From NCBI GenBank assembly GCA_022799355.1, contig JAAWOG010000010.1, forward strand, positions 5,766 through 69,765: 64,000 bases of DNA. Reading direction: 5' to 3'. Source of the stretch: Lachnospiraceae bacterium. GTDB lineage: Bacteria > Bacillota > Clostridia > Lachnospirales > Lachnospiraceae. The position numbers were made by a program, and so were the translations under genes. Of the stretch, positions 3,971 through 57,362 are shown piece by piece. The first letter of the stretch is position 1; each line of letters starts with the position of its first letter. The notes under the pieces are model-generated. The model did not search any database, had not been told where the DNA came from, and saw only the letters and a program-made list of their open reading frames with translations.

Positions 3971-5585
3971 AATTAAATTAAAGAGTGTCTTGTCTATTAT
4001 ATTGTTCATTTTTTCAATAGTTTTTACTATTATTATGAGACAGAGAGATTACGTAGTCGCATTGTCTGAACCATTATATACGGAAGTTTATAAGATCACG
4101 GAACTATTTCAGGTACGGCAGATTATAGCAAGCCTATTTTTTTTCTTTGTGGGATATCTGATTATAACAGTAATTATACCTGAATTGCCAGATATATTTA
4201 GAATGATTTTAGCAATACCAACGTCAATTGTAGTTTGGGGAACGATTTCAATCATTGTACTTTTACTACGGCTTCCTTATACAAAGCAGTTGATGTTTTT
4301 AATACAGGGTATATTAGCAATTGTTTTCATTTATATTCTTGCACGCAGAAAGACTTTGGCATTGAGGCACTTTCTGCAATTTATAATAAGGCTGGCAGTA
4401 GTTTCATCATTTGTAAATATTATTTCAACAGGAATTATCAGATATACAGTAGCATCAGATACGTATTATTATATATATACTTATGGAAGATTGATTGCAA
4501 AAGCGGGAAAATTATCGGCTGAGAGTATGGGGAATCTTCTTGAGACAACAGGACTGATGATGGCAGTAATGGCGAGTTTTGCAGTATTCTGTGGATTTGA
4601 GACAATTCAGATTATCCATTTTATGTTGATATTTTCTTTTTTAGGACTGTTAGTTTATTATTTGTATCATATAATATGTACATATGGAGCGGATAAGAAA
4701 AAGGCGGGAGTAATTGTGGCATTTATTTTAGGATGCGCAATATCACCTCTTTTTTTAATAAGTAATTTGATTATATCACATTCATGGATGATGGTGTTTT
4801 TATTTATATGTTCCTTTTATATGAAAGAATATATAAATACAATAAATTATAATATAAGACAGAAGATTATAGGGATAATGTCTCTGTATTTATTGTGGAT
4901 GTCTTTTTTACGTATAGAGGCAATTATTACAATTCTATTTTTAATTGTTTGTTTTACATATCTGGGTATTTCACGGAGGGAACTATTGATATTAAGTTTT
5001 CCAACATTAGTTATGAATGCTGTTTTTCATATTGAGATGCAATTTTTAATAAGAAGAGCCAATGATCATTTATCATATGGGACTGTGTTTGTTACCCCTA
5101 AGGCGCTCATAATTATTTTTCTGGCTATTATTCTTATGGGAGGCTATATCGTATTTTATAATATAAAGTTATTAAAAATTATGAGAGGACATCTTCCAGT
5201 TATAATAATAGTATCATTGTTAGCAGCAAGTGTTATAATTTGCCTTCCGGATAAGGAACGGACTATCAATAATTTTCATTCCATTTTTTATAATTTGGCG
5301 AATGAAAGGTGGTATTATTTTCCACATTTAGTCGCACTGCTTACTTTAATCATTTTGAAAGGTAAAAAGAATTATGGGTTCTGGGATATGATAACATTCG
5401 GAATGATTTTACTGAATTTTGCGATGTGTATGGGGAGAGTTCAATATCTTCGAGACGGCTGGGGTGACTCTTTCAACAGATATTTGTTGCAGGCGGTTCC
5501 ATTTATGCTTGTTTTTCTGACAGATAATATTGGGGAAATAGTTTATGGATTAGAGAAGGCGGAGCGTGCTAAAACAAGTATTTAG
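3951..5585 (+). CDS. Large polytopic membrane protein (at least 12 hydrophobic segments); candidate polymerase or GT-C-type enzyme, family unknown
   Basis: The ORF track gives 3915..5585. ATG 3951 (MNGRRNRIKLKSVLSIILFIF..) is the more plausible start. The sequence is almost entirely hydrophobic helices and lies in operon context between a GT4 and a GtrA/GT2 module. Confidence 0.55.
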   Translation: MNGRRNRIKLKSVLSIILFIFSIVFTIIMRQRDYVVALSEPLYTEVYKITELFQVRQIIASLFFFFVGYLIITVIIPELPDIFRMILAIPTSIVVWGTISIIVLLLRLPYTKQLMFLIQGILAIVFIYILARRKTLALRHFLQFIIRLAVVSSFVNIISTGIIRYTVASDTYYYIYTYGRLIAKAGKLSAESMGNLLETTGLMMAVMASFAVFCGFETIQIIHFMLIFSFLGLLVYYLYHIICTYGADKKKAGVIVAFILGCAISPLFLISNLIISHSWMMVFLFICSFYMKEYINTINYNIRQKIIGIMSLYLLWMSFLRIEAIITILFLIVCFTYLGISRRELLILSFPTLVMNAVFHIEMQFLIRRANDHLSYGTVFVTPKALIIIFLAIILMGGYIVFYNIKLLKIMRGHLPVIIIVSLLAASVIICLPDKERTINNFHSIFYNLANERWYYFPHLVALLTLIILKGKKNYGFWDMITFGMILLNFAMCMGRVQYLRDGWGDSFNRYLLQAVPFMLVFLTDNIGEIVYGLEKAERAKTSI

Positions 5586-19315: not shown

Positions 19316-20881
19316 ATGCTTCAGGAGATTAAAAGAAGGGTGAGTTTAAAAGGATCAAAAGCTGCGGTATGGATCGTATCTGTCTTTTTGCTTTTTGCGT
19401 TGCTGCCGCTTTTTGTGATTGCACATTTTAATTATCCGTGCAGTGATGACTTCGCGTATGCGGGGGCGATTTATTCCGGGATAAAAAACGGATGCAGTTT
19501 TTGGCAGATTTTGAGGGGCTGTTGGGAGACGGCAATGAGTTACTATAGAAACTGGCAGGGGCGCTATTTTGATGATATTGTTTCGGCATTTGGCGTGGGA
19601 ACGGCTGTTCCTGAATTTTACTTTTTGGGAACGTATTTGACACTGGTTCTGTTTGTTATGGCATGTATTGGCTTTGTAAGGACGGTTGCATACAGGCTGT
19701 GCCGTTGGGACTCAGATATTTCCTGGATTGTTTCAATGTTGATAACGGCGATGCTGGTATTATATGTGCCATATCCGTCGGAGGCTTTTTATTGGTATGT
19801 AGGGGCAACAGGCTACACCATGGCATATGCGCTTTTGCTGTTTCTGGGACAGACATTGATTGCCTTTTATTCTGCGAAGAAGGGATGTTCTTTTAAAAGA
19901 TGTCCCCAATCTTTGGATGAACATAGCGGATCAGACAGAGAAACAGAGGTTTCTTATCAGGCAAAAAAAACAGAGAAACAGAAAGTGTTGTTTGGTATAC
20001 TGGCGGTTATTTTAACGGCCATGGTTGGGGGAAGCAATTATTCCACAGGGCTTCTTACTGCGGAAATACTGGTAGTGGTATGTGTCCTTATGTTGGTGCT
20101 GAAAAAAAAATGCGGTTTTCTACTGTTTATTCTGGCGGAATATTTGCTTTGCTTTGTGAAATTTAATGCGTTATCCTCCGGAAATAATGCAAGGATGGGG
20201 AATGTGGAGAGCCTGGGTGCTGTGGGAAGTATTTTGGCATCTCTTAGCCAGGGGGCAGTTTTTTTGAAAGAGTGGTTTCGTTTTCCGGTATTTCTTTTTC
20301 TTGTGGTGGTACTTTTGCTGGGGGCTTATCAGTTGGCAAAGATGGAATATTCTTTCCGGCTGCCGGTTTTGGTGACGGTAATTTCTTTTGGGCTGTATTC
20401 TTCCATGATGACACCGGCATTTTTTGCAGGAGCCACATGGGGGCCCGGACGGTTGATTAATCTGGTATATTTCAGTTATTATTTTCTTTTAGCGGGAAAT
20501 CTGTTATATTGGACAGGGTGGGCAGTTCATAAATATGAAAGACTGCGGCAGATAGCAGGAAGGCAAATAAAAATACTGCCTGTATTTTTCTACTTTTTTG
20601 TGTTACTTCTGGTCAGTCTGAAAATATATGGACTGCAATCTACAAATAGTAGCAGTGCATTGTTGTCTTTGGTAAAGGGAGAGGCAGCAGAATATTTGAG
20701 AGAAAATGAGATTCGCTGGGAGATTTTTATGGATGATTCTATAAGAGATGCGGTAGTAGAGGATTTTTCCGTAAAACCGTATGTGTTGTATCATGATGAT
20801 ATTGTAGAGGATGAGACTGATTGGAGAAATCATGCTGTGGCGAACTTTTTTGGAAAAGATTCAGTCAAGTTGAAAAAATAA
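19316..20881 (+). CDS. Polytopic membrane protein, family A (paralog of 29084..30637; resembles what I recall as DUF6056)
   Basis: 521 aa with at least 10 TM segments. Conserved blocks shared with the paralog are HFNYPCSDDFAY, YRNWQGRYF, SEAFYWY, GGSNYSTG, TWGPGRLIN and a C-terminal soluble tail (..NHAVANFFGKDSV). Confidence 0.6.
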   Translation: MLQEIKRRVSLKGSKAAVWIVSVFLLFALLPLFVIAHFNYPCSDDFAYAGAIYSGIKNGCSFWQILRGCWETAMSYYRNWQGRYFDDIVSAFGVGTAVPEFYFLGTYLTLVLFVMACIGFVRTVAYRLCRWDSDISWIVSMLITAMLVLYVPYPSEAFYWYVGATGYTMAYALLLFLGQTLIAFYSAKKGCSFKRCPQSLDEHSGSDRETEVSYQAKKTEKQKVLFGILAVILTAMVGGSNYSTGLLTAEILVVVCVLMLVLKKKCGFLLFILAEYLLCFVKFNALSSGNNARMGNVESLGAVGSILASLSQGAVFLKEWFRFPVFLFLVVVLLLGAYQLAKMEYSFRLPVLVTVISFGLYSSMMTPAFFAGATWGPGRLINLVYFSYYFLLAGNLLYWTGWAVHKYERLRQIAGRQIKILPVFFYFFVLLLVSLKIYGLQSTNSSSALLSLVKGEAAEYLRENEIRWEIFMDDSIRDAVVEDFSVKPYVLYHDDIVEDETDWRNHAVANFFGKDSVKLKK

Positions 20882-20890
20882 GGTGGGATA

Positions 20891-22723
20891 ATGTTCAAAG
20901 AATTGCTTCAGGATAAAAAGAAGAAATATATAGTGATAGTTTTGCTGCTGGGAAGTTTTTTTGTGGCGTTAAAGTGTATTTTTGTCAGTCTTCATATGGA
21001 TGAAGAATATGCTGTCAGCCTGTCTTATCGGCTCCTCAGAGGGGACAGGCTTTTTACACAAGTATGGGATCCGCATCAGACATCGGCGTTTTTGATGGAG
21101 TTTCTGATGTGGATCTATCTGAAACTTTTTGATACAACAACTTATATTGTGGTCTGGGTGAGAGCAATAGGAGTATTGATACAGTTTGGGATAGCTTATT
21201 ATCTGTATCGGATGCTCTGCTATCTGCTTGAGCCGGAGTATAGTTTTTATTTATCCATACTGTATTTTAATTTATTGCCCAAAACGTATGTGATGCCTGA
21301 ATTTTCCAATATGATGGCATGGGGGCTGACGATGCTTTTGCTGAGCTTTTTCAGGCTGTCGATGCTGGAGAAGAAGGAGGCGGAAGATAGAAAACGGAAT
21401 TTGAAAATAATATTGACAACAATAGAGGCAGGGATGTGGCTCTCTTTTGTGGTACTTTCTTATCCGTCCTGTGTGCTGCTGTTTCCCCTTTTGTTGTGGT
21501 ATCTTTGGAAGTATGATGCTTACCGGAAAAGAACAATAGCCGTATTTGCGGGAACCTGTCTTGCGGCAGGGGGAGCGTATATGGCATATTTATTCAGCTA
21601 TATGACGCTATCGGAGTTGCTTGTCAATATTCGGAGCCTGCTGGCGTCCAACGGTTCTCACAGTGACGGAATAATCGGTAAATGCCAGATTTATGGACTG
21701 AATCTGGTGCCGTTGTTGTTATTTGGGACAGGATATTTGGCGGCGGCTGTTATTGTATATCAATGTATAAAGAGAAAGAAATTACGTGTTCATGAGGCGG
21801 GTATCAGGAAAGCGGGAGCAACAGATAAAGGAGGTCTTGCGGCAGATAGTAAATGCGGTTTTGGCATGGGATTGAAACATATGCCGGAAGAAGAAAAGCT
21901 TACTTTTTATTATATCTTCCTGATTACCTCTTTTGTATTGATGTTTCTGCACTGGATATTTATGTTATGGAAGTATGAGCGTTCTTATCCGTATACCATA
22001 TACTTTTTTATCTTTGCGCTTGCATTTTATTATGTAAGAAAACTGCCGGAAGAAAAAAGAATAGTAGCGGATCTCTGGCTGTGGTCAAATGTAGTAATGT
22101 ATATTGCTATTTTGATGCTTACGAACCTGACATTGTTTACATCCGTAAAATATCTATTGACAGGAGTGATCATGGGGGCGGCGGTCCTTTTGATCTATAC
22201 GAAGGAGAGACAGCCGGAGATTTACCGGAAGTATGCGGGCTGTTTTTTGATCGTATGGTGTTTTGTGGCAGTTTTTATAAAAGGCTGGGCTTATACGGAC
22301 AATGACGGATTGATGAAGAATATTACCTGTGTGGGAAATATCATCTCAGTGGGACCGGGAAAGGGCATTGTCACGGAGTATATGCAGGGGTATATGGCGG
22401 AGTGCAGCCATGAGGAATTTGGGACATATATTGAACTGGGAGAGAGCCTGCTTGCGCTTGATACCAATACGATCTGTTATATGTATCAGGATGTCAATAT
22501 CGGTTCCTGTACCACGATCTGCACCCCATCCTTTGATGAGAATCTGCTGGATTATTGGGAAAGGAATCCTGACAAATATCCGGATGTGATAGCGGTGATG
22601 TGCTGGTATGGAGAACTGCAATGGGATCAGGAGAGCTGGATCATGCATTGGATCGAGAATGAATTTGGAGCAACGCAGGTGATCGACGGAAAGTACTTTA
22701 GATATTATATCAGGAGACCATAG
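20891..22723 (+). CDS. GT-C-like polytopic membrane glycosyltransferase (PMT_2/ArnT-like)
   Basis: 610 aa. The first loop carries the acidic motif SLHMDEEYAVSLSYRLLRGDRLF...WDPHQTS. Many TM helices follow, then a C-terminal soluble domain of about 130 aa. Confidence 0.55.
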   Translation: MFKELLQDKKKKYIVIVLLLGSFFVALKCIFVSLHMDEEYAVSLSYRLLRGDRLFTQVWDPHQTSAFLMEFLMWIYLKLFDTTTYIVVWVRAIGVLIQFGIAYYLYRMLCYLLEPEYSFYLSILYFNLLPKTYVMPEFSNMMAWGLTMLLLSFFRLSMLEKKEAEDRKRNLKIILTTIEAGMWLSFVVLSYPSCVLLFPLLLWYLWKYDAYRKRTIAVFAGTCLAAGGAYMAYLFSYMTLSELLVNIRSLLASNGSHSDGIIGKCQIYGLNLVPLLLFGTGYLAAAVIVYQCIKRKKLRVHEAGIRKAGATDKGGLAADSKCGFGMGLKHMPEEEKLTFYYIFLITSFVLMFLHWIFMLWKYERSYPYTIYFFIFALAFYYVRKLPEEKRIVADLWLWSNVVMYIAILMLTNLTLFTSVKYLLTGVIMGAAVLLIYTKERQPEIYRKYAGCFLIVWCFVAVFIKGWAYTDNDGLMKNITCVGNIISVGPGKGIVTEYMQGYMAECSHEEFGTYIELGESLLALDTNTICYMYQDVNIGSCTTICTPSFDENLLDYWERNPDKYPDVIAVMCWYGELQWDQESWIMHWIENEFGATQVIDGKYFRYYIRRP

Positions 22724-22725
22724 AA

Positions 22726-23784
22726 ATGGGAGAGAACAGAAATTCCGGATATCAGTTTTATATAGACATATTGCGGATTATAGCCTGTTTCAGCGTGATC
22801 ATGCTTCATGCATCGGCACAGGCGTGGTATAGCCTGCCGGTGGACAGCTTCGGATTTAAGGTTGCCAATTCCTATGATGCATTGTTTCGATTTGGTGTGC
22901 CGGTTTTTGTGATGATCAGCGGGGCGCTGTTTCTTGCACCTGAGAAGGAACCGGATGTGAAAAAGCTCTATCGCCATAATATCCTGCGGCTGGCCATTTT
23001 GTATATATTTTGGTCCTGCTTATACGGGCTGATGGACTGCAGGGGATTTGATCCTGCCGGGATCGGATGGAAGGATGTTTTGAGAGAGATGATTCTGGGG
23101 CGGTATCACTTGTGGTTTTTGCCGATGATTATTGGGATTTATGTGTTGCTGCCTGTTTTAAAGGTGTGGCTCCGAAATGCGTCTAAGAAGAATATAGAGT
23201 ATTTTTTGCTGTTGTTTTTTGTCTGTCAGATCTTATGTGAGACGATCAGAGCAATCTGTGCTTCCGGTATGGCGGACTATGTGCTGAATCTTTTTCAGCC
23301 GGAGATGGTGTGCAGTTATCTGGGGTATTTTGTGCTTGGATATTATCTGGTGCATATCGGCGTCGATAAGAGATGGCATAAATTTATATATGTGGGCGCA
23401 CTGGCAGGAGGAGTTTTAAATATTGTGCTGGGAAACTATCTGGCAGAACGTGCCGGAGAACCTACCGGAGCAATCTACGACAGCTTTGGACTGTTTACGG
23501 CATTGATTTCCGTGGCACTTGTAATATGGGCGAAGGAGACTTTTTCACGAAAGGCTTTCGGTGCAGGGATGGAGAAGGTTTTTCATGAAATTTCCGCGGC
23601 TACATTGGGAATTTATGTGATGCATGTAGGATTGATAGAGATTTTGGAAGTCCGGGGGATTCATAGCCAGATGGTATCGCTTGTTTTTGGGATACCGTTT
23701 CTTGCGGTGATATGTTTTATCTGCTGTTTTGCGGTCAGTGCAGTGCTTAGGCGCATTCCGATTGTCGGGAAATATATTTGTTAA
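22726..23784 (+). CDS. Acyltransferase family 3 membrane O-acyltransferase (OafA/WecH-like)
   Basis: 352 aa. YIDILRIIACFSVIMLHA, FRFGVPVFVMISGALFL, HLWFLPMIIGIYVLLP, about 10 TM segments. Confidence 0.85.
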   Translation: MGENRNSGYQFYIDILRIIACFSVIMLHASAQAWYSLPVDSFGFKVANSYDALFRFGVPVFVMISGALFLAPEKEPDVKKLYRHNILRLAILYIFWSCLYGLMDCRGFDPAGIGWKDVLREMILGRYHLWFLPMIIGIYVLLPVLKVWLRNASKKNIEYFLLLFFVCQILCETIRAICASGMADYVLNLFQPEMVCSYLGYFVLGYYLVHIGVDKRWHKFIYVGALAGGVLNIVLGNYLAERAGEPTGAIYDSFGLFTALISVALVIWAKETFSRKAFGAGMEKVFHEISAATLGIYVMHVGLIEILEVRGIHSQMVSLVFGIPFLAVICFICCFAVSAVLRRIPIVGKYIC

Positions 23785-25652
23785 TATACAATATAAACAT
23801 AAATATGATACCAGCTATCTTCCGTCTCAAAAGGGGCTTCCTGCAACAGAGAAAGCCCTTTTTCTTCCGCGTTCATCAGATAAGCGGCAGAAAAGATATA
23901 CTTACAGTTCAGTTCTTTCAGCTTATCGATATTCAGGTCAAGATCATAGACCACACTGTTCCATTTTTTCTCAAAGGTATAGTAATTTGCCTGTTCTGCT
24001 GTGGTGATATAACAACGGTTTCCCCAGTTGTCAAAAAAATCTCTGACATAGTCGTTTTTTTTCAGTTCACCCTCCATAATTTCACGGAAAGTGTGTTTAT
24101 ATTCCAACGGATAATTATTGGAATAGCCGTCCAGACAGTAAAAACCATTGTAAGCGGCAGCGGCAGGGTAGATACCGACACTGATAACACGATAGTTTTC
24201 CTGAGGTTCTCCGATAGCCATATTGATCTGGCTGAAAATATCTTCCGCGAAGAATTTATCCCAGTCAAGAGCGTAGTAATCACTGCCCTTCAGCAGTTTT
24301 GACAGGTTGGGGCGGAGCGGGGAATGAAGCAGTATGGTGATGCCCCAGATTCCTGATACGGCGAAAATAATAACATGTATCAGGAGGGCTTTTCGGTAAT
24401 TTACAGAAACGGAATGTTTAGCATAAGAGGCAGGCTCTGTTCCGGTTTTCCATATATCCGCCAAAAAGCTGAAAAGATATCCTGCCAGAATACACCAAGC
24501 TGTCGGCAGTAGCCAGCAGATGCGGTCCAGGTTAAATGTTTTCAGGATTCCGCCCGAGGTATTTCTGAGTTCTGTGATATAAGATCCATGATAAAAAGCG
24601 TAAAATAAGCAAACAATAAAAATAAAAAGCAATATCCGAAAAGCGTTTAACAAAGTTCGCCGGTTGCTTTGTAAATAAAGGGATTCTTTTTTGCCGGCAG
24701 AACAAAATACTATCAGGCAAAAAACGAAAAGGAAAAAGACAACGGTGTGGTAACTCTGTGCGTAGGAGATCCCCGTTGTAAATGCCTCTTTGAAATAGTC
24801 AGAAAAATTCTGAGGGGAGAGCAGCATTTCGGATTTGTGACTGATATAGGTGGTTTCAGGAAAAAGAACCTGCCTGATCAGTCCTAAATTTGTTATGATA
24901 TATGTTATCAACAGGACAGCAAAGGAGAGCCAGGGAGAGAGAGAAATCTGTCTTTTGGCATGAAGCGCCCTGTATGTTTCGGAAAGCGCAAATATTCCGA
25001 GTATGAACAGGCAGGCGAAGCCAACCAGTACCAGAGAGGAGGAGGCAGCGTAAAATACGATTATAAGGTAACAGGGAAAGCTGCTGCGGCAAAAAATCCT
25101 CGGAATATTTCCGAAAGAGGGGGAATGAGAGCTCTTATCGGTATCTTTCAAAGAAATTTCGCTGCTGAAAAGTGAATGCACAGCATAAATCAACAGAGGC
25201 TGTCCGGGAATGCAAAGCCCATATACCGGATAAAATGGCAGCAGCATAAAAACAACAGCAATCGAAAAAGAAATAAATTCTTTTTCTGTAAGCTTTATCA
25301 AAAGCATATACGTGCCGAGAAAGGCCGTCATGTATATGATCCATTGAGAGATCATAAAAGCGGTAAAAGGGCTGCATATCACATAAAGCAGTACAAACAG
25401 CGGCGCCGGAGGGACTGCTCCTGCGGCAGGAAGTCCGTTCATGATCTCAGGATAGATTCGGATATCAGTGAATAAATATCTGGCGGTCAGCAGGTAGCTG
25501 AAAAGCTCACCGTCTAACTGGTCATGGTAGGTAATGATGCTTCCTGTGCCCAACAGCAGAAAAGGAACCATAAAAAGGCAGGACAAAATAAGTCCCAGTC
25601 CAAGATAACAATTTTTCTTATGTGTATGATACAGAGATAACAATTTATTCAT
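23781..25652 (-). CDS. Large polytopic membrane protein with a C-terminal extracytoplasmic domain (possibly DUF6044-like)
   Basis: 623 aa on the minus strand. The N-terminus is ..GTGSIITYHDQLDGELFSYLLTARYLF, followed by at least 11 TM segments. The C-terminal soluble part is ..GIYPAAAAYNGFYCLDGYSNNYPLEYKHTFREIM... Its stop overlaps the stop of 22726..23784 (shared TTAA at 23781-23784). Confidence 0.6.
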   Translation of the reverse strand: MNKLLSLYHTHKKNCYLGLGLILSCLFMVPFLLLGTGSIITYHDQLDGELFSYLLTARYLFTDIRIYPEIMNGLPAAGAVPPAPLFVLLYVICSPFTAFMISQWIIYMTAFLGTYMLLIKLTEKEFISFSIAVVFMLLPFYPVYGLCIPGQPLLIYAVHSLFSSEISLKDTDKSSHSPSFGNIPRIFCRSSFPCYLIIVFYAASSSLVLVGFACLFILGIFALSETYRALHAKRQISLSPWLSFAVLLITYIITNLGLIRQVLFPETTYISHKSEMLLSPQNFSDYFKEAFTTGISYAQSYHTVVFFLFVFCLIVFCSAGKKESLYLQSNRRTLLNAFRILLFIFIVCLFYAFYHGSYITELRNTSGGILKTFNLDRICWLLPTAWCILAGYLFSFLADIWKTGTEPASYAKHSVSVNYRKALLIHVIIFAVSGIWGITILLHSPLRPNLSKLLKGSDYYALDWDKFFAEDIFSQINMAIGEPQENYRVISVGIYPAAAAYNGFYCLDGYSNNYPLEYKHTFREIMEGELKKNDYVRDFFDNWGNRCYITTAEQANYYTFEKKWNSVVYDLDLNIDKLKELNCKYIFSAAYLMNAEEKGLSLLQEAPFETEDSWYHIYVYIVY

Positions 25653-25788
25653 AGCATTATATTAATAAGGAAAGATTGGGATGTCAACTATAAATCAGCC
25701 TTTCCAGACCAGGCTGATGATTTAAGATGGAAAAACAACGGTACAGGCAGAGGGGGATAAACGATGGGCGTCCATTTATGAATTAACA

Positions 25789-25817
25789 TTGAAATAATAA
25801 ATGAGATAAGTTATAAT
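25789..25817 (+). promoter_or_regulatory. Near-consensus sigma-A promoter for the CotH-VTC-DUF4956 operon
   Basis: TTGAAA (25789-25794), a 17-nt spacer, and TATAAT (25812-25817), 94 nt upstream of ATG 25911. The leader contains the palindrome TTCCATAT-n8-ATATGGAA (25846-25869). Confidence 0.6.
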
Positions 25818-25910
25818 TCGTAACAGACAGAAAGATTATCATATTTTCCATATGTCTGGAAATATGGAATAAATAATAGAATTACGAAGACAATTAAAGA
25901 TGTACCAAAG

Positions 25911-27674
25911 ATGGAGGTGAGTTTCATCAGTCAGTCTAAAAAAATTACGGCAGGATTTATATTACTTTTAACAGTTATAATGGGGGCATTTTTGACTGGT
26001 GATTCTCAAAGAACTGTACATCTTGGCTTTTCTGAAAAGCCGGGATATTATGACGAGGTTATTGAACTGAAAATTTTGGGAAGCGATGGAAACAGGGTAT
26101 ATTATACTCTGGATGGGAGCGATCCCGGAACGGACGGAATATTATATGAACCGGATAAGCCGATTATACTTACGGATGCCAGTGCCAATCCGAATGTTTA
26201 TTCGGCGAGAACGGATACTTCTACCGCGTTTCTTAGTGATCTGGTAGAGACATATTCATCGGGAGCGGAGGAACCCGGATACACGGTTCCCGATTATCCT
26301 GTTGACAAATGCAATGTGGTTCGTGCCGCTGCTTTTGATAAAAAGGGAAATTGCCTTGATACGATAACAGGTGTATATTTTGTGGGATTTCAGGATAAGA
26401 TCGGTTATGATAAAATATATACCGCCTCGATTGTAACAGATCCGGATAATCTGTTTGATTATGACAGGGGGATTTATGTTACGGGAAGTACGTTTGAGGA
26501 AGCAAAAGATACCATTTTTGGTTCCGACGGCGAGGGGAATGATTCGGTTTTGGAACATCGTTCCTGGTACTGGTGGACGTCAAACTACAGTAACAGAGGA
26601 ATCGAGTGGGAAAGGGAAGCGGTAGTAACCATTTTTGATGAGGGAAAAGAGCAGGTTTTGTCAGAAAACTGTGGTATCAGAATACAAGGCGGGGGCAGTA
26701 GGGGAATGCTGCCGAAAAGCATTGGCTGCTATGCGAGAAGAGATTACGGAGGAAGCTATAATTTTCAGACGCCATTGTTTCAGGAAGAGATATATCCTCA
26801 TAAGTTTGTCTTTTTTTCCGGTGGTGATGATAATGTTTTTAAATTAATGGATTATCTGGCGAATACAATGGAAAAGGATCTTGCTTTTTCCACGATGGAT
26901 TTTATTCCCTGCGCGGTTTTTCTGAACGGGGAATACTGGGGAGTTTATTATATGACGGAAAATTACAACCGTGATTTTATCAGCAGCCACTATAATGTGG
27001 AAGAGGATAATGTGATCATGGTAAAGAATGGTGAACTGGCAGAAGGAAAGGGACAGGAGGTAAGGCTTTTTGAGGAAATGGTGTCATTTATTGCCGGTAA
27101 TGACATGACACTGGAGGAAAATTATGAGCGGGCGTGCCGTCTGATCGATGTAGACAGTTACATAGATTACTATGCGGCACAGACATATATTGCGAGATAT
27201 GGTGACTGGCCCGGGGGAAACTATGCGGCGTGGAGGACAAGAAAGAGCGAAGGTTCTGCCTATGGAGACTGCAGGTGGAGATGGATGCTTTTTGATGTGA
27301 ATTCCGGAGCATTGGCTGTTGATATGGTGGAGGCGGATATATTTGTGAGTATTCCGCAGAGTGATGTGGTGTTTCAGTCATTGTATCAAAATGAAGCGTT
27401 TCGGGCAAAATTTGCCGAAAGGTTATTATATATAGGCAGAGAGATATATTCAGAGGAAAACTGTCAGGCTTTTCTGGAGGATTATGTGCAGAGGATGAGG
27501 GAGCCGGTTGCCGCAGGCAGCCTTCGGTTTTATAATGATGCGCGAAGAGAGGAATTTGACAGGAATGTTGAAAATATCAGTTTGTTCTTTGAGGGAAGAT
27601 ATGATGCCATATGGAGTTCGCTGACAGAGAACATGGGAGAAGAATGGCTTAGAAAAAATGGAATACAGAAATGA
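25911..27674 (+). CDS. CotH kinase-family protein with an N-terminal signal anchor (exported)
   Basis: 587 aa. TM anchor ITAGFILLLTVIMGAFLTG. CotH-type blocks are CGIRIQGGGSRGMLPKSIGCYARRDYG, CAVFLNGEYWGVYYMTENYNRDFI and VDSYIDYYAAQTYIARYGDWPGGNYAAWR. Confidence 0.8.
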   Translation: MEVSFISQSKKITAGFILLLTVIMGAFLTGDSQRTVHLGFSEKPGYYDEVIELKILGSDGNRVYYTLDGSDPGTDGILYEPDKPIILTDASANPNVYSARTDTSTAFLSDLVETYSSGAEEPGYTVPDYPVDKCNVVRAAAFDKKGNCLDTITGVYFVGFQDKIGYDKIYTASIVTDPDNLFDYDRGIYVTGSTFEEAKDTIFGSDGEGNDSVLEHRSWYWWTSNYSNRGIEWEREAVVTIFDEGKEQVLSENCGIRIQGGGSRGMLPKSIGCYARRDYGGSYNFQTPLFQEEIYPHKFVFFSGGDDNVFKLMDYLANTMEKDLAFSTMDFIPCAVFLNGEYWGVYYMTENYNRDFISSHYNVEEDNVIMVKNGELAEGKGQEVRLFEEMVSFIAGNDMTLEENYERACRLIDVDSYIDYYAAQTYIARYGDWPGGNYAAWRTRKSEGSAYGDCRWRWMLFDVNSGALAVDMVEADIFVSIPQSDVVFQSLYQNEAFRAKFAERLLYIGREIYSEENCQAFLEDYVQRMREPVAAGSLRFYNDARREEFDRNVENISLFFEGRYDAIWSSLTENMGEEWLRKNGIQK

Positions 27675-28347
27675 ACTGAAATTTATGGTATCTGATTCGG
27701 ATCTGGAAAGGATCAGGTATAGGCTTTTACCGCTGATGAAGCAGGATGAGCATCAGGGAATACGTGGATACCGGGTGAGCAGCGTTTATTTTGATGATAT
27801 TTACGATTCTTATTTATCTGAGAATGAAGCGGGGACAGATAACAGGAAAAAGTACAGAATCAGGTTGTATAACGGAGATTCGGAACTTATTCATCTGGAA
27901 AGGAAGTCTAAATATCGTGGAATGACCGGAAAAATGAAGCAGAAACTGACAAGGGAAGAGGGCGAATTTCTGATAGCCGGAAATTTGGAAGGGCTGCATG
28001 ATAAAATGGCATCTGAAGATGATTTTCTGCTCAGAGAAGTTTGCATGGAAATTTTGAGGAAAAAACTGAGAGCAAAATGCATTGTGGAATATGAGCGGTT
28101 TGCTTTTGTGGAGAGTACGGGTAATGTCAGGATAACATTTGACAGGAATGTATCCGGCAGCAGGCAGGTGGAGAGTTTCTTTGAAGAGGATATTGTCCAT
28201 ATGCCGGTTATGCCCAGAGGCTGGCATATACTGGAGATAAAATACGATGAACTTTTGCCGCACTATATTTTGCAGGCGGTCGACACAGGAACCCTGCGCA
28301 GACAGTCCTTTTCAAAATATTGTGCGGTGAGGCGGATTGTCGGGTAG
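27658..28347 (+). CDS. VTC-domain (CYTH/triphosphate-tunnel, polyphosphate-polymerase-like) protein, soluble
   Basis: 229 aa starting MEYRNELKFMV. Alternating basic/acidic beta-strand motifs are typical of tunnel metalloenzymes (YRVSSVYFDD, KYRIRLY, HLERKSKYRGMTGK, ILEIKYDE). The ATG overlaps the end of the CotH gene by 17 nt. Confidence 0.75.
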   Translation: MEYRNELKFMVSDSDLERIRYRLLPLMKQDEHQGIRGYRVSSVYFDDIYDSYLSENEAGTDNRKKYRIRLYNGDSELIHLERKSKYRGMTGKMKQKLTREEGEFLIAGNLEGLHDKMASEDDFLLREVCMEILRKKLRAKCIVEYERFAFVESTGNVRITFDRNVSGSRQVESFFEEDIVHMPVMPRGWHILEIKYDELLPHYILQAVDTGTLRRQSFSKYCAVRRIVG

Positions 28348-28363
28348 AGGGAGTGAGGATATC

Positions 28364-29038
28364 ATGGGCGTTAAGGATGTGATAAAGAAATCGGTGCTGG
28401 AAGGCTTTGCGGCTAACGATATTTCCAATGTGAAAATTATTGTGACGCTGGGAATTTGTTTTCTGATTGCGGCATATATCTATTTTATATACAGATATAT
28501 AACAAAAGCCACGTTTTATGACAGGAATTTTAACGTTGCGATGGCAATGGTTTCAGTTGTTGTTGCGGGGATTATACTTGCGATGCAATCCAATCTGGTT
28601 ATTTCACTGGGAATGGTAGGAGCCCTATCGATTGTGCGCTTCAGGACGGCAATAAAAGAGCCCATGGATCTGTTGTTTTTGTTCTGGTCGATCGGAACCG
28701 GTATTATCTGCGGCGCCGGTTTATACGAACTGGCAATTATCATAGCGCTTGTGGTGACAATTGGAATCCTGCTTTTGCAGATTATACCGATCAATGCAAG
28801 CCCTTATCTGGTAGTTATCAACGCGAAGGATAAAGGGATGGAAGCTGATATTCTGACAATCGTAAAAAAATATTCTCCGCGTTATCGGATTGACTCAAAA
28901 AATATCCGGGCGTCGGGGATGGATCTGATCATAGAGATACGAAGCAAAAGCGGCAGTACGCTTGTAGATGAGTTGTCCGCGATAGAGGGTGTTGCGTCGG
29001 TTTCTTTATTATATCATGATGCACCGGTAAAAAATTAG
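28364..29038 (+). CDS. DUF4956-family membrane protein (4-5 TM plus a small C-terminal soluble domain)
   Basis: The ORF track starts at TTG 28337. ATG 28364 follows an AGGGAGTGAGGA SD. It carries the characteristic block LGMVGALSIVRFRTAIKEPMDLLFLFWSIGTGIICGAG. It lies 17 nt after the VTC stop codon. Confidence 0.75.
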   Translation: MGVKDVIKKSVLEGFAANDISNVKIIVTLGICFLIAAYIYFIYRYITKATFYDRNFNVAMAMVSVVVAGIILAMQSNLVISLGMVGALSIVRFRTAIKEPMDLLFLFWSIGTGIICGAGLYELAIIIALVVTIGILLLQIIPINASPYLVVINAKDKGMEADILTIVKKYSPRYRIDSKNIRASGMDLIIEIRSKSGSTLVDELSAIEGVASVSLLYHDAPVKN

Positions 29039-29083
29039 AGGAGCGGTTTAACGGAATGACGTTGTGAGTAAACACAACGCGCG

Positions 29084-30637
29084 TTGGGATGCCGGAAGCA
29101 TAACTGCCCCTTGCCCATCCTCCACCCCTATGCTAAAATAGAAAACATGAAAATAATGGATATCGGCAAAATAATCAGGGAAAAGGACAAACTGGCGGCG
29201 GTATTGCTGACGGTGTTTTTTGCGTTGCAGATCATCCCGCTTTTATATCTGGGAAGATTCAACCACCCTACTTCCGATGATTTTAAATATGGTACATATT
29301 CTCATACGGCATGGCAGGAGACAGGCTCTCTGGCAGCGGTACTGGAAGCGGCGGCAAAGGGTGTTGCGGAGGATTATCAGACATGGCAGGGAAGTTATTC
29401 GGCACTTTTTCTGATGAGGCTTGAGCCATCCGTGTTCGGAGAGAAGTATTACGGCCTGGTGCCCTTTATTATGCTGGGGCTTTTGAGCATCGGGACATTG
29501 TATTTTCTGAGGACGATGTTTAAGGTCGTGCTGAAATCGGATTCCCTTCATTATATCAGTATATCGATGCTGATCCTGTCTTTCTGCGTGCAGTTTTCAC
29601 CGGTGGCTTCGGAACAGTTTTTCTGGTACAACAGTTCGGTTTACTATAATGCTTTTCATGCGCTGCTTTTATGCTATCTGGGGTGGCTTGTGCGGTTTGG
29701 CTATGGGGGAGGAAAACGGTATATTGTTTATATGGCGTTCGGCGGATTTTGTCTGGGAGGAGGCAACTATGTGACGGCGCTGCTCCTTGTTATGATTCAT
29801 GCTGCGGCGCTGGCTCTTTTGTGGTATTTGAAGAGAAGAAAAGAGTTTTGGGCGATTCTTTTTTTGTGGCTGGAATTTCTGGCATGTTTTGCAGTGAGTG
29901 CGGCCGCGCCGGGAAATGCGATAAGAGGGGCGGAGATAGCCGGGTACGGCGCGGTTTCTTCCATTGTCAGATCTTTGGTGCAGGGAGTGCGGTACTATAT
30001 GGCATGGCTGGACAAGTGGTGGCTGATAGCGGCTTTGATTATGCTGCCGGTGATGCTGGGACTGATCAGGGAGACGTCTTTTCAGTTTCCCCTGCCGGGC
30101 TTTGTGCTGCTGTATCTCTACGGCGCATTCAGCGCCATGTCCTGTCCGACTTTTTATGCCCTTGGAAGCACGGGGCCGGGGCGGATCATCAATATTATCT
30201 ATGACAGTTTTCTGCTGATAAGTTTTGCTCAGTTGTTTTATCTGCTGGGGTATATCTGCCGCAGATGGGAAGAGGCCGTAGCGGACGGGAGAAGGCAGAA
30301 GGAGCGCCTTGGCATTCTTTTTGCCGGATTGTATAACGGAGCCGTTATCATCCTTGCCAGCATGTTGTTATTGTCGGGAGCGATCCTGGATATGACAACG
30401 GTGACGGCGTGCAAGGTCTGGATAAAAGGTGAAGGAAAGCAGTATCATAAGGAGTATATGGAGCGGCTTGCCGTACTGGAGGATGAGAGTGTTGCGGATG
30501 TGGTGTTTGCGCCCTATACGGTGGAACCCGACCTGGTTTTTATTGCGGATGGAACGGAAGATCCGGAGTTTGTCAATAACAGGGAGTGGGCGGATTTTTA
30601 TGGAAAGAATTCGCTGGTGATCCGGGCGGAAGAATAA
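29084..30637 (+). CDS. Polytopic membrane protein, family A (paralog of 19316..20881)
   Basis: 517 aa, collinear with 19316..20881 (RFNHPTSDDFKYG, YQTWQGSYSALF, SEQFFWY, GGGNYVTA, STGPGRIIN, ..NREWADFYGKNSL). The start is uncertain: TTG 29084, or ATG 29147/29156 (MKIMDIGKII..). A TTGCCC-17-TAAAAT promoter-like element lies at 29111-29139. Confidence 0.6.
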   Translation: MGCRKHNCPLPILHPYAKIENMKIMDIGKIIREKDKLAAVLLTVFFALQIIPLLYLGRFNHPTSDDFKYGTYSHTAWQETGSLAAVLEAAAKGVAEDYQTWQGSYSALFLMRLEPSVFGEKYYGLVPFIMLGLLSIGTLYFLRTMFKVVLKSDSLHYISISMLILSFCVQFSPVASEQFFWYNSSVYYNAFHALLLCYLGWLVRFGYGGGKRYIVYMAFGGFCLGGGNYVTALLLVMIHAAALALLWYLKRRKEFWAILFLWLEFLACFAVSAAAPGNAIRGAEIAGYGAVSSIVRSLVQGVRYYMAWLDKWWLIAALIMLPVMLGLIRETSFQFPLPGFVLLYLYGAFSAMSCPTFYALGSTGPGRIINIIYDSFLLISFAQLFYLLGYICRRWEEAVADGRRQKERLGILFAGLYNGAVIILASMLLLSGAILDMTTVTACKVWIKGEGKQYHKEYMERLAVLEDESVADVVFAPYTVEPDLVFIADGTEDPEFVNNREWADFYGKNSLVIRAEE

Positions 30638-30674
30638 CTATGTTGTTTGGGGATTTTGAGAGGATTGAACTTTT

Positions 30675-32990
30675 TTGACAGGAAATAAACAGAGAAGCAA
30701 ACATAATAAAATAACAGTGATTCTGGCAGTTCAGTTTGTTGTATTATTTATTTTGGGATGGCAGCTTGCAAACAAAGGCCAGGAATACGCGCTGGAGATG
30801 ACGCCGGTATCACGGATGGAGGAAACAGGAGAAAGGATTGACTATATAAGTCAAAATATATCTCTCGAAACCGGCTCTTACCGGGTGCTTGTGGATTATG
30901 CGGCATCTTCGGATATGACGAATGCGGTCGATATACTTTCTGCAGACGCCGGATATGGAGGGTTAAAGACAAATACAACGCCTCTGTATGCGGGGGAGAG
31001 GCAGACTTCTTATCTGTTCTGGCTGAAGGGCTCGGTTTCTGATCTCCAGGTGAAAGTAACGGCAGGGGAAGAGGGAAGTCTTGATGTTTCCGGCGGAAGG
31101 CTGGTGCGGACAAACCATTTGGAACGCCAAAGGCTATTGTGTGTATTATTGTTTTTCCTGATTTTGGATGTGCTGCTTTACCTGCTTTCCGAATGGAACC
31201 GGGCGGAAATAAAGAAAAAGCGAGATGCAGGGATGACGGCGGTTTTATTGGCCGGTATTATCCTTGGGGTTTCCCTACCGCTTTTTACGGACTATCTGCT
31301 GACGGGAGCGGATATGACATTCCATTTGCTCCGCATAGAGGGAGTGAAGGATGCTCTGGCATCAGGGCAGTTTCCGGTACGTATTCAGCCGAACTGGCTG
31401 CAGGGACACGGTTATGCGGTGGGCATATTTTACTGTGATCTGTTTTTGTATCTGCCCGCATTTTTGCGTATCATGGGTTTTACCGTGCAGACGGCATACC
31501 AATGTTACAAATTGTCCGTGAATATTGCGACCTGCCTGATCTCCTGGTACAGTTTTCGGAAAATGTTCCGAAGCAATAAAATAGGAGTATTTGGGAGCTT
31601 TCTATATACTTTTTATATTACGAGGCTGGTATTCCTGTATGCAGTAGACGGTGTGGGGCAGTATACGGCAATGACGTTTTTACCTCTTGTGGTTTATGGC
31701 TTTTACCGGATACTGACGGAGGATCAGAACAAACCGGAGGAAAAGTACGGCTATATACCGCTTGCGCTTGGGATTTCAGGCGTTTTGTGCAGCCATGTGC
31801 TGAGCTGTGAGCTTCTGTTGTTTTTTATATTGCTTCTCTGTGTAGTCTGCATCAAAAGAATATGCAGGAGGGAGGTATTCCTGCAGCTTTGCAGGGCGGC
31901 GGCAGTGACGATACTGCTGAATCTGTGGTATCTGGTTCCTTTTCTGGAATATATGCTTGGCACGGACCTTGCGGTGACAAAGGGCGGCGCAGCGTATAAA
32001 CAGATTCAAACCTGGGGAATGTATATACCACAGTTGTTTGAGCCCTTCCCTTCGGGCGGACTGGACGGAGCAAGGCAGGCGCAGAGCGGCATGATAGGTG
32101 AGACCGGGTACGGGATCGGACTTGGACTTGGACTGGGGCTTCTGCTGATTGCTTTTCTGTTGACGGTGGTCAAAAGTGTTCCTGAGAAGATGCCGGGAGG
32201 AGAAAACCGGCAGGGGATTTTTTGGAAAGCTGGAAAAACGGTTCTCGGTTTCGGGCTGTTGTCCATGTGGATGGGGACCATCTATTTTCCCTGGGACAGG
32301 CTGGCGAAGTGGGGCGGTGTTTTGCGGCAGCTTATTGCAACCCTGCAGTTTCCCTATCGTATGCTGACTTTCAGCGGCGTCTTTCTTGTGGCGGCATGCT
32401 GCTTTGCAGTATGTGACCTGAACGGTATGAAGGCGGCAGGAAGGCTGAGGCCCGTACTGTTTTATGGGATAGTGTTTACGATCGGCATAGGGCACCTGCT
32501 GACAGCCGCATATTTTAACAATACCGCATTTGCCAAAAGCGGCGGGTTTTTCCGTCTGTACGACGAGACGGCAATGGGAAACAGTTATATTTCCGGCGGA
32601 GAATATATACTGCTTGGCACGGACACCGGGAAGCTGACTTATAAAGGGCCTGTCTGCAGTGAGAAAATCGCGCTGAACAGTTATGAGAAAGAGGGCTGTT
32701 ATGTAAGGATCGATTGTGACTGCGGTGCCGATGGGCAATATATTGAACTGCCGCTGTTATATTATAAAGGGTATAGGGCAAAAGAGAGCGGCGGTGAGAC
32801 ATTGCAGGTGGTTTGCGGTGAAAACAATGTGGTGAGGGTGCTGGTTCCTTCGGGCTTTCAGGGGATCATTGAGGTAGATTTTGCCGGTTTCTGGTATTGG
32901 AGAGCGGCGGAACTGATCTCTTTTGGAACGTTGTGCCTGATCGTGTTACCGACCATCCGAAAGCATTTTCGGAGAGGCAGAATAAGTTAG
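30675..32990 (+). CDS. YfhO-like GT-C membrane glycosyltransferase (family B; paralog of 61777..>64000)
   Basis: 771 aa. An N-terminal anchor is followed by an extracytoplasmic domain of about 120 aa. The core starts GADMTFHLLRIEGVKDALASGQFPVRIQPNWLQGHGYAVGIFYCDLFLYLPAFLRIMGF and has at least 12 TM segments. The C-terminal domain has the YfhO-like ELPLLYYKGYRA block. Confidence 0.65.
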   Translation: MTGNKQRSKHNKITVILAVQFVVLFILGWQLANKGQEYALEMTPVSRMEETGERIDYISQNISLETGSYRVLVDYAASSDMTNAVDILSADAGYGGLKTNTTPLYAGERQTSYLFWLKGSVSDLQVKVTAGEEGSLDVSGGRLVRTNHLERQRLLCVLLFFLILDVLLYLLSEWNRAEIKKKRDAGMTAVLLAGIILGVSLPLFTDYLLTGADMTFHLLRIEGVKDALASGQFPVRIQPNWLQGHGYAVGIFYCDLFLYLPAFLRIMGFTVQTAYQCYKLSVNIATCLISWYSFRKMFRSNKIGVFGSFLYTFYITRLVFLYAVDGVGQYTAMTFLPLVVYGFYRILTEDQNKPEEKYGYIPLALGISGVLCSHVLSCELLLFFILLLCVVCIKRICRREVFLQLCRAAAVTILLNLWYLVPFLEYMLGTDLAVTKGGAAYKQIQTWGMYIPQLFEPFPSGGLDGARQAQSGMIGETGYGIGLGLGLGLLLIAFLLTVVKSVPEKMPGGENRQGIFWKAGKTVLGFGLLSMWMGTIYFPWDRLAKWGGVLRQLIATLQFPYRMLTFSGVFLVAACCFAVCDLNGMKAAGRLRPVLFYGIVFTIGIGHLLTAAYFNNTAFAKSGGFFRLYDETAMGNSYISGGEYILLGTDTGKLTYKGPVCSEKIALNSYEKEGCYVRIDCDCGADGQYIELPLLYYKGYRAKESGGETLQVVCGENNVVRVLVPSGFQGIIEVDFAGFWYWRAAELISFGTLCLIVLPTIRKHFRRGRIS

Positions 32991-33133
32991 CATATAAACT
33001 TTTTGTAAAATTTCCGCATCCCAAATAAGAGAAACAGATTTCCGGAAAATTTGTTTGGAGAAAAAGCGATAACAAAGCGATCCCGCAGCAGCCTGGCAGG
33101 GGTTGAATGGATATAAAAGAAACGGAGGCAGAC

Positions 33134-34135
33134 ATGTTAAACAATAAAACAATTTTGATCACCGGAGGAACCGGGACTTTTGGAAAAGCTTTTGTAAGTT
33201 ATGTGTTAGAGCATTATGAGTCGAAAAAGCTGATCATCTATTCCAGGGATGAGTTCAAACAGTTTCTGATGAAGAATGAATTTCAGAAATATGCGGACAA
33301 ACTGCGCTTTTTTATCGGCGATGTGCGGGATAAAGAGCGGCTTGAGAGGGCGTTTGAGGATGTGGACTATGTGATTCATGCGGCGGCGATGAAGCAGGTG
33401 CCCGCCTGTGAGTATAACCCTGATGAGGCTATCAAGACCAATATCCACGGCGCCCAGAATGTGACGGCGGCGGCGTTGGATGCAGGCGTGAAAAAGGTGG
33501 TGGCGTTATCTACGGATAAGGCGGTGAATCCTGTGAATCTGTACGGTGGGACAAAGTTGGTATCGGACAAGCTGTTTATTGCGGCGAACGCCTATGCGGG
33601 GAAAAAGGAAACCTGCTTTTCCATAGTCCGTTACGGCAACGTGGCGGGCAGCAGGGGTTCCGTGATCCCGTTTTTTAAGAATATTCTGGACAATGGGGGA
33701 ACGGAACTGCCGATCACGGATTACCGCATGACTCGTTTCTGGATCAGTATCACACAGGGCGTGGAACTGGTGATCAAGGCGCTGGAAGAGGCAAACGGCG
33801 GCGAGACCTTTATTTCAAAAATTCCTTCCTTTAAGATTACGGATCTGGCGGAGGCGATGCTGCCGGGATGTAAGATGCCTGAGGTGGGGATCAGGGAAGG
33901 CGAAAAGCTGCATGAGATCATGGTGACGGAGGAGGATGCGCCCAACACCTATGAGTATGATAAACATTTTATTATTTTCCCGCAGATGGTCTGGAATAAC
34001 CGGCAGATGCCCAATCCGAACGGACTCGGGAAGAAAGTGCCGGAGAGATTTTCTTACAGTTCGGGCAACAATGAGCAGTGGCTGTCGGTGGAGGAGATTC
34101 GTGAACTTCTGCAGCATCTGGAGCTGGAACACTGA
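33134..34135 (+). CDS. pseB: UDP-GlcNAc 4,6-dehydratase (inverting), PseB/FlaA1 type
   Basis: The ORF track starts at 33107. ATG 33134 follows a GGAGG SD. MLNNKTILITGGTGTFGKAFV, IIYSRDEFKQ, FFIGDVRD, HAAAMKQVPACEYNPDEAIKTNIHGAQNV, ALSTDKAVNPVNLYGGTKLVSDKLF, VRYGNVAGSRGSVIPFF, MTRFWI, GEKLHEIM. Confidence 0.8.
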   Translation: MLNNKTILITGGTGTFGKAFVSYVLEHYESKKLIIYSRDEFKQFLMKNEFQKYADKLRFFIGDVRDKERLERAFEDVDYVIHAAAMKQVPACEYNPDEAIKTNIHGAQNVTAAALDAGVKKVVALSTDKAVNPVNLYGGTKLVSDKLFIAANAYAGKKETCFSIVRYGNVAGSRGSVIPFFKNILDNGGTELPITDYRMTRFWISITQGVELVIKALEEANGGETFISKIPSFKITDLAEAMLPGCKMPEVGIREGEKLHEIMVTEEDAPNTYEYDKHFIIFPQMVWNNRQMPNPNGLGKKVPERFSYSSGNNEQWLSVEEIRELLQHLELEH

Positions 34136-57341: not shown

Positions 57342-57362
57342 AAACCAGGGAGTTGATATACT

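Follow-up and report, generated by a model that had tools for sequence, protein, structure and literature searches.

A CotH-VTC-DUF4956 gene trio in a Lachnospiraceae surface-glycan region and a possible polyphosphate supply for an exported kinase

How might a kinase that is predicted to face the outside of the cell obtain a phosphoryl donor? This question is raised by three adjacent genes in a 64,000-nt stretch of DNA from a Lachnospiraceae bacterium (contig JAAWOG010000010.1; hereafter the window, within which all positions are counted). In the open reading frame (ORF) listing the three genes lie on the plus strand between 25911 and 29038 and encode, in this order, a CotH-family atypical kinase (25911..27674, 587 aa), a VTC protein (27658..28347, 229 aa) and a DUF4956 protein (28364..29038, 224 aa). 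The ATG of the VTC gene lies inside the end of cotH, creating a 17-nt overlap, and the DUF4956 gene follows from its own ATG after a 16-nt gap; an earlier note, made from the sequence alone, had described a tightly coupled trio at this place, and the reading frames agree with it. The explanation that we tentatively favour, and which we hold to be possible without being probable, is that the VTC-DUF4956 pair synthesises polyphosphate at the membrane and that CotH makes use of it on the cell surface.

The family assignments proposed in the earlier note were tested using profile hidden Markov models, and all three proteins scored above the curated Pfam cut-offs. The VTC protein matched Pfam VTC PF09359 at 7.7e-39 (134 bits versus a cut-off of 23), CotH matched Pfam CotH PF08757 at 6e-29 (102 bits versus 23.8) and the DUF4956 protein matched Pfam PF16316 at 2.7e-12 (47.2 bits versus 30.6). 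NCBIfam contained no model for any member of the trio, and searches of the PDB sequences with each protein as a single sequence returned nothing useful.

The VTC match is full length, with residues 4-223 falling on positions 2-229 of the 235-position profile, and neither a second domain nor a transmembrane (TM) segment was detected by Pfam and a hydropathy scan, which agrees with the soluble tunnel protein that had been described. A profile built from 37 VTC sequences matched the catalytic domain of yeast Vtc4 (3g3q) at 4e-06 among the PDB sequences. The AlphaFold2 model of the protein (predicted local distance difference test, pLDDT, 91) is a closed beta-barrel tunnel with eight long strands, and in a Foldseek search with this model ranks 1-13 were all occupied by Vtc4, Vtc3 or Vtc2, the best being Vtc4 (E-value 8e-15, template modelling score 0.71), while the next tunnel enzyme in the ranking, ygiF, was found at 1e-08; triphosphatases and cyclases trail by a wide margin.

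According to a cryo-EM study of the VTC complex, Vtc4 binds triphosphate through K200, R264, R266, K281, Y359, R361, S457 and K458, with E426 as Mn ligand, these residues being required for synthesis, and K458 is replaced in the inactive paralogues Vtc2 and Vtc3 (10.1101/2023.01.27.525886). In the profile alignment R67/R69 of the window protein correspond to Vtc4 R264/R266, K83 to K281, Y145/R147 to Y359/R361, K92 to K294 and R158 to R373, and the groups R4-x3-K8, E193-x-K195 and S219-K220 have the spacing of Vtc4 R196/K200, E426/K428 and S457/K458. The tunnel residues, aligned and spacing-assigned together, are present in 85-86 of 86 homologues, and K220, the counterpart of the active-Vtc4 lysine K458, is kept in 85 of these 86 VTC copies. 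The earlier note had let its reading depend on conserved tunnel Lys, Arg and Glu residues, and these are in place, some of them by spacing only. On this evidence the protein is predicted to be a Vtc4-type tunnel enzyme and a polyphosphate polymerase.

The position of the VTC start codon bears on these residues. A near-identical copy of the locus in a metagenome run (L086) has a gene order identical to that of the window, and there an independent automatic gene call (3322-3984) places the VTC start nine codons further 3'. The later start would remove the strand carrying R4, E6 and K8, and because these residues are invariant in the 86 homologues we take the overlapping start at 27658 to be the correct one. 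Database entries of this family that are 220 aa long may be truncated.

The DUF4956 protein had been described as having four to five TM segments, and its AlphaFold2 model contains five TM helices, preceded by a short N-terminal helix and followed by a C-terminal beta-alpha-beta-beta-alpha-beta domain. In Foldseek this model found ACT domains and the MgtC C-terminal domain (7qa5), in both cases through its own C-terminal domain only. All 40 aligned DUF4956 members also matched Pfam MgtC PF02308 weakly (14-22 bits versus a cut-off of 31.4), and on these scores DUF4956 is MgtC-like but no member of the MgtC family. A homology with the yeast VTC channel was considered and rejected, there being no fold match to Vtc1, Vtc3 or Vtc4. 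At 50% identity the DUF4956 family falls into 5,669 clusters, and the protein is conserved more strongly than VTC; a core consisting of S81-K98, D102, W108, G113 and G117 is near-invariant, and R92-F-R94-T-A-x-K98 forms an invariant loop. Because the positive-inside rule puts the N-terminus outside, the ACT-like domain and this loop are predicted from the model to be cytoplasmic, in the compartment of VTC. The listed relatives are of near-uniform length (~224 aa), and since almost all are 224 aa the ATG at 28364 was taken as the start of the window gene and an in-frame TTG at 28337 was rejected. One 386-aa DUF4956 protein among the best 150 family representatives includes part of a citrate synthase and could be chimeric.

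CotH begins with a predicted signal anchor (25938..26006, residues 10-32, with Lys-Lys before it; hydropathy scan), as the earlier note had read it, followed by an Fn3_assoc/CHB_HEX_C_1 domain (26037..26378, residues 43-156; Pfam 5.6e-08 and 4.8e-06), both on the plus strand. This N-terminal domain is of a type shared with a beta-hexosaminidase and gave a weak profile match to structure 6q63. An N-terminal anchor was found in 82 of the 86 CotH homologues of related loci, the remaining 4 being cut by contig ends. Because of its anchor CotH is expected to act outside the membrane, and an outward orientation is predicted for the enzyme, on the side that offers no ATP. A profile of 29 CotH homologues matched the B. 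cereus CotH structure 5jd9 at 2e-17. In B. subtilis CotH, mutation of the catalytic Asp (D228) or the metal-binding Asp (D251) inactivates the kinase (PMC7821199); D432 and D462 of the window protein correspond to these residues, D432 aligning when a one-residue shift is allowed, and N437 and K269 are also conserved. Across the 29 aligned homologues K269 and D462 are invariant, and conservation of N437 is at least 90%.

The arrangement of the three genes was then compared across genomes. A locus scan with one genome per species returned 80 loci, mostly from Lachnospiraceae and Oscillospiraceae but also from Erysipelotrichaceae and one Bacteroidales, and synteny was counted over 86 VTC genes from 81 sources. 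DUF4956 adjoins VTC on the same strand in 83/86, the other 3 ending at a contig edge, and the median gap between the two genes is 12 nt. CotH adjoins the VTC-DUF4956 pair in 78/86, and the complete trio is present in 70/81 sources. The order CotH-VTC-DUF4956 accounts for 60 cases, DUF4956-VTC-CotH for 7 and VTC-DUF4956-CotH for 4. The synteny that the earlier note had staked its proposal on is therefore found elsewhere, with the two genes of the pair side by side in every case that is not cut short by a contig end. Five of five distant replicons, including Actinomycetota and Bacilli, show the pairing too: a Planococcus plasmid and Nonomuraea have VTC-DUF4956-CotH, a Pseudobutyrivibrio plasmid has CotH-VTC-DUF4956 within a glycan locus, an Enterococcus faecalis plasmid has the VTC-DUF4956 pair with CotH 2.3 kb further on, and Paenibacillus has the pair only. 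The same trio layout was found in Bacilli, Actinomycetota and Bacteroidales.

The three proteins are not equally conserved. Mean identity is 49% for DUF4956, 45% for VTC and 21% for CotH, and the identity matrices correlate more closely between VTC and DUF4956 (rho 0.55) than between VTC and CotH (0.20); two very divergent groups of CotH, both confirmed by Pfam, adjoin the pairs. Because of the difference in correlation and the far greater divergence of CotH, the VTC-DUF4956 pair is by these sequence measures the conserved core and CotH its variable client. Recurrent neighbours in the related loci are GT2, Bac_transf, LCP, GtrA, CWB2 and NTP-transferase proteins, which are wall-glycopolymer functions; GT-C-like DUF proteins also belong to the cell-wall glycan context of the trio.

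Several loci differ in layout. The pair is duplicated in L003, L005, L008, L012 and L038, for example as VTC-DUF4956-CotH-VTC-DUF4956, as is also the case in C. perfringens NELoc-2. Since the active-Vtc4 Lys is kept in 85/86 copies, a division of the duplicated VTC copies into active and inactive forms like that of Vtc4 and Vtc3 is not evident. NELoc-2 itself reads VTC - membrane protein - resolvase - VTC - membrane protein - CotH, where the ~225-aa cytoplasmic-membrane proteins are annotated 'tubulin/FtsZ' and are presumably DUF4956, and it continues with a ~685-aa hypothetical protein, a HEAT-repeat protein and a glycosyltransferase. On the Planococcus maritimus plasmid NZ_CP059541 (L081, 4470-12087), VTC-DUF4956-CotH is followed by a 689-aa protein to which no Pfam family was assigned, a HEAT-repeat protein and a glycosyltransferase, and the match in order between the two loci points to another conserved form of the module, one of greater extent. 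In a Bacteroidales metagenome-assembled genome (L079, 4379-9305) the trio is not part of a glycan cluster; the genes immediately before it encode a protein with an LPG_synthase_C domain (aminoacyl-phosphatidylglycerol synthase-like) and a 177-aa protein of unknown kind.

The trio itself has been described before. In 2020, Whitfield et al. reported that the pel operons of streptococci, clostridia and bifidobacteria are adjoined by accessory genes, namely cotH, a poly-phosphate polymerase gene, DUF4956 and DUF4832 (PMC7112168). A study of S. intermedius (bioRxiv 2024, mBio 2025) found the same trio of domains in SIR_1594-1592: CotH was described as secreted and as having its catalytic residues, the polymerase as Vtc4-like, and the TM protein as MgtC-like and equipped with an ACT domain. 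The authors proposed that the trio has a part in phosphate metabolism; deletion of the CotH or DUF4956 homologue altered the level of Pel and halved aggregation in sputum medium (PMC12345266). That study reported the trio as not found outside pel loci (PMC12345266). In the window, neither a Pel family nor a DUF4832 hydrolase was found among the ORFs scanned, and none of the annotated neighbour clusters of the 80 related loci was recognised as a pel-like family. It follows that the trio commonly lies outside pel loci, contrary to the 2025 report, and the published view is corrected in this respect. The trio has accordingly been known since 2020 and 2025 as a pel-operon accessory cluster, described without a mechanism, and the window locus is an ordinary instance of a common module. 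The earlier note had stated that no function has been assigned to it by experiment; this essentially stands, as the literature searched contained no test of bacterial VTC activity, of export or of the donor used by exported CotH, but the note had missed the description beside pel operons (PMC7112168) and the S. intermedius deletion mutants (PMC12345266).

How, then, could the three proteins work together? According to the explanation that we favour, VTC would polymerise polyphosphate from nucleoside triphosphate in the cytoplasm while docked on DUF4956, a partner with a cytoplasmic ACT-like domain and the invariant Arg-Phe-Arg-Thr-Ala-x-Lys loop. DUF4956, probably as an oligomer, would convey the polymer across the membrane to its external side. 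There the anchored CotH, which would have no access to ATP, would draw on the phosphoanhydride bonds of polyphosphate in order to phosphorylate a surface protein or a wall glycopolymer; alternatively, it would attach phosphate chains to such a target. We infer the polymerase activity, the docking of VTC on DUF4956, the export of the polymer, and the use that CotH makes of polyphosphate together with its target. Modification of wall polymers outside the cytoplasm depends on activated donors that are carried over the membrane, an example being the undecaprenyl-phosphate sugars moved by GtrA-type systems. The argument is circumstantial: a complete-looking polymerase has an obligate membrane partner, a kinase stands on the ATP-free side and the locus otherwise serves the modification of wall polymers outside the cytoplasm, and an obligate pairing of VTC with a membrane protein would not be needed if polyphosphate were stored in the cytoplasm. 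Because it passes the tests of family, synteny and tunnel residues, polyphosphate supply to an exported kinase is the best available explanation. The earlier note had proposed a polymerase plus channel feeding CotH, and this proposal comes through those same tests and is partly supported; DUF4956 may be the channel, but it is MgtC-like and bears no likeness to Vtc1 or Vtc4.

A number of observations weigh against polyphosphate supply. To our knowledge, no enzyme with a protein-kinase fold uses polyphosphate as donor. The DUF4956 model is only moderate (pLDDT 72; predicted template modelling score, pTM, 0.52), and Foldseek returned no counterpart for its TM part and no likeness to the Vtc1/Vtc4 pore. 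No fusion of VTC with DUF4956 was found among the best 150 representatives of the DUF4956 family. On the side of the enzyme, the equivalences to K200, E426 and S457/K458 come from spacing and conservation, with no explicit alignment, and a C-terminal VTC sub-profile for E426, S457 and K458 matched only spurious RsbU fragments. No CotH gene lies within 10 kb of eight of the VTC-DUF4956 pairs, and three other CotH paralogues in the window have no VTC-DUF4956 pair of their own. MgtC, the characterised distant relative of DUF4956, is described as a regulator and not as a channel (PMC12345266). Finally, the S. intermedius VTC deletion mutant still aggregates and has no clear phenotype, and is therefore a poor fit to a strictly linear pathway (PMC12345266).

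These observations bear in part on the main rival, an economy of phosphate confined to the cytoplasm, which we consider rather doubtful. Here, VTC would make or turn over polyphosphate inside the cell and DUF4956 would be an MgtC-like sensor or regulator in the membrane that binds a metabolite through its ACT domain; the pair would tune the supply of phosphate or ATP during synthesis of phosphate-rich wall polymers, and CotH would obtain its donor from elsewhere, such as undecaprenyl pyrophosphate or released ATP. Bacteria tolerate polyphosphate in the cytoplasm, and the weak MgtC match of all 40 DUF4956 members, with the same architecture, and the 8 pairs without a nearby CotH are what such a role would lead one to expect. 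MgtC is moreover described as acting on ATP synthase and PhoR, with no transport, and the S. intermedius authors suggested that the polymer may remain cytoplasmic (PMC12345266). However, the similarity to MgtC is under the Pfam threshold, and a purely cytoplasmic function leaves unexplained both the constant, close membrane partner of a soluble polymerase (83/86) and the exported kinase that stands beside the pair (78/86, four phyla).

The remaining alternatives change the fate of the polymer or the activity of the enzyme. Polyphosphate could itself be the surface product, exported by the pair as an anionic wall or matrix polymer that serves as a teichoic-acid-like charge carrier or as a cross-linker of cationic polysaccharides such as Pel, with CotH anchoring, trimming or ligating it. 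The evidence for export is the same as that for supply to the kinase, the failure to find any likeness between DUF4956 and the Vtc1/Vtc4 pore weighs on it equally, and there is further agreement with the association of the trio with cationic Pel loci in streptococci (PMC7112168), with the aggregation defect of CotH and DUF4956 mutants (PMC12345266), with the co-located LCP ligases and CWB2 wall-binding proteins, and with the divergence of CotH (21% mean identity), as expected of an enzyme matched to variable surface polymers; yet the complete kinase catalytic set of CotH points to phosphoryl transfer, the S. intermedius VTC mutant still aggregates (PMC12345266), and we judge this alternative improbable. 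Lastly, VTC might not be a polymerase but another tunnel enzyme, a tri-/polyphosphatase or nucleotide cyclase, which for example degrades imported polyphosphate or makes a signal for the ACT domain of DUF4956. PMC4641920 describes the diverse reactions carried out by the one tunnel fold, other tunnel enzymes also match the VTC model significantly, and no measured activity for any bacterial member was found in the literature searched. Against this, Vtc4 is by far the best match in both structure and sequence and the active-Vtc4 Lys appears to be kept (K220, 85/86), so that a reaction other than polymerisation seems very improbable.

If polyphosphate supply were the general function of the module, many bacteria would possess a two-protein polyphosphate synthase-exporter, in which a free Vtc4-like enzyme works with an oligomeric MgtC-like DUF4956 pore, a conduit evolved independently of eukaryotes, and provides polyphosphate as phosphoryl donor for exported CotH kinases acting on wall glycans or surface proteins. 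We think this wider claim unlikely, but it would have consequences. Reactions on the exterior of the cell would be energised in a new way, and bacteria would have a third means of making polyphosphate in addition to PPK1 and PPK2, with a eukaryote-type VTC polymerase put to use by them; the claim would define a function for the large DUF4956 family; and it would reveal a new modification of cell-wall polymers in abundant gut Clostridia, in streptococci and in the virulence loci of C. perfringens. Exported bacterial kinases have no obvious phosphoryl donor, and a polymerase wired to a membrane protein beside them offers a concrete and testable answer.

Upstream of the trio, a putative sigma-70-type promoter TTGAAA-17-TATAAT lies on the plus strand (25789..25817, the two coordinates being those of TTGAAA and TATAAT), 94 nt 5' of cotH. 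The earlier note had called this promoter near-consensus, and it is indeed the top-scoring site in 25400-33200 (7.8 kb; 11/12 match) and occurs once in the window versus 0.04 expected by chance. The promoter is situated in a divergent intergenic region (25653-25910) shared with a DUF6044 gene, and the minus strand of this region likewise has a site that looks like a good promoter, TTGACA-17-TAATAT (25687-25659), directed toward the DUF6044 gene. Downstream of DUF4956, the short hairpin that the note had reported on the plus strand (29060..29079) exists and has a 7-bp stem, but its candidacy as a convincing terminator was rejected: it has no T-run, its folding is only marginally better than that of shuffled sequences (z = -1.8), and it was not picked up by a terminator scan. 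That scan also revealed no terminator between the trio and two further plus-strand ORFs (29147-30637 and 30675-32990), which encode multi-TM proteins with at least nine hydrophobic segments each and for which a Pfam search found no family. With the hairpin unconvincing as a terminator, transcription may therefore run past DUF4956 into these genes, which may belong to the same operon.

A Pfam scan of the ORFs across the window shows that the surrounding 64 kb is a large surface-glycan region, so the families of the neighbouring ORFs place the trio where the note had placed it. The region encodes aminotransferases, a formyltransferase, GT1/GT2/GT52-like transferases, sugar dehydratases and epimerases, an acyltransferase and an ABC exporter, along with GT-C-like DUF6044, DUF6056 and DUF6020 proteins. 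Three more CotH paralogues are found at 50303-52780 (minus strand, 825 aa), 52740-54437 (plus, 565 aa) and 54421-56106 (plus, 561 aa), with Pfam CotH matches of 1e-26, 4e-24 and 9e-30, respectively. An N-terminal hydrophobic segment is clear in the first two and weaker in the third, where it is under the scan threshold, and the three genes adjoin a GT52/polysialyltransferase-like gene and the ABC exporter (56124-59111). The window therefore holds four apparently exported CotH kinases versus one VTC-DUF4956 pair, and the three paralogues could also draw on the output of that pair.

Other parts of the region give hints about the glycan. A DegT-type aminotransferase followed by a sugar N-formyltransferase (186-2047) suggests a formylated amino sugar in the polymer. 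Between 44868 and 49587, a GHMP kinase, an NTP-transferase/HAD fusion, a short-chain dehydrogenase, a SIS-domain protein and a transaldolase-like protein are encoded in a row and look like a nucleotide-heptose pathway supplying the glycan. Many large multi-TM proteins are encoded at 19316-25652, 29147-32990 and 38407-40032; the DUF6056, DUF6044 and DUF6020/PMT_2 members are probably GT-C-like, and several others, including the two directly after the trio, have no Pfam family.

The window locus can finally be set beside the systems that it most resembles. The pel accessory cluster contains the same three families, contiguous and co-oriented, and the published domain descriptions agree with ours, whereas no pelDEADAFG genes adjoin the window locus among the ORFs scanned, and its neighbours are GT2, GT-C-like, LCP and GtrA-type wall-glycan genes. 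C. perfringens NELoc-2 likewise has annotated VTC and CotH genes, and it shares its order and the kinds of genes that follow with the Planococcus plasmid; it differs from the window in having the order VTC-DUF4956-CotH with a duplicated pair, compared with CotH-VTC-DUF4956 and a single pair.

Bacillus CotH (5jd9/5jda) belongs to the same Pfam family as the window protein, as the profile match (2e-17) and the retained catalytic Asp/Asn/Asp and Lys indicate. The substrates of the Bacillus enzyme, however, are the coat proteins CotB and CotG, which it phosphorylates, and in vitro it works with ATP (PMC7821199). The window CotH is unlike an ATP-using spore-coat kinase of the mother cell in its signal anchor, in its domain of the type common to a beta-hexosaminidase and in its location in a glycan locus, and it is predicted to act outside the membrane. 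For DUF4956 the nearest comparison is the MgtC family (Salmonella MgtC, P. aeruginosa PA4635), with which it shares the sub-threshold similarity of the TM domain in 40/40 members and the layout of a hydrophobic N-terminal part and an ACT-like C-terminal domain, reflected in the Foldseek match to 7qa5. It differs from this family in scoring below the Pfam MgtC cut-off (14-22 versus 31.4 bits), in possessing its own invariant motif and in always being paired with VTC, a pairing that is not reported for the MgtC homologue (PMC12345266).

The eukaryotic VTC complex (Vtc4/Vtc3/Vtc1) offers the closest parallel to the predicted enzyme, with the same tunnel family, fold and substrate-binding residues. 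In both cases the polymerase is tied to a membrane protein, in bacteria through obligate gene adjacency, and R92, R94 and K98 of DUF4956, at the predicted cytoplasmic face, recall the Lys/Arg rings at the mouth of the eukaryotic channel. The window VTC, in contrast, has no SPX domain and is a free 229-aa catalytic protein with no membrane fusion, and the membrane protein paired with it is MgtC-like, having five TM helices and an ACT-like domain, unlike the three-TM subunit of which five make up the eukaryotic pore. The destination of the polymer would be the cell exterior instead of the vacuole, and in the bacterial system the gene for a kinase is attached.

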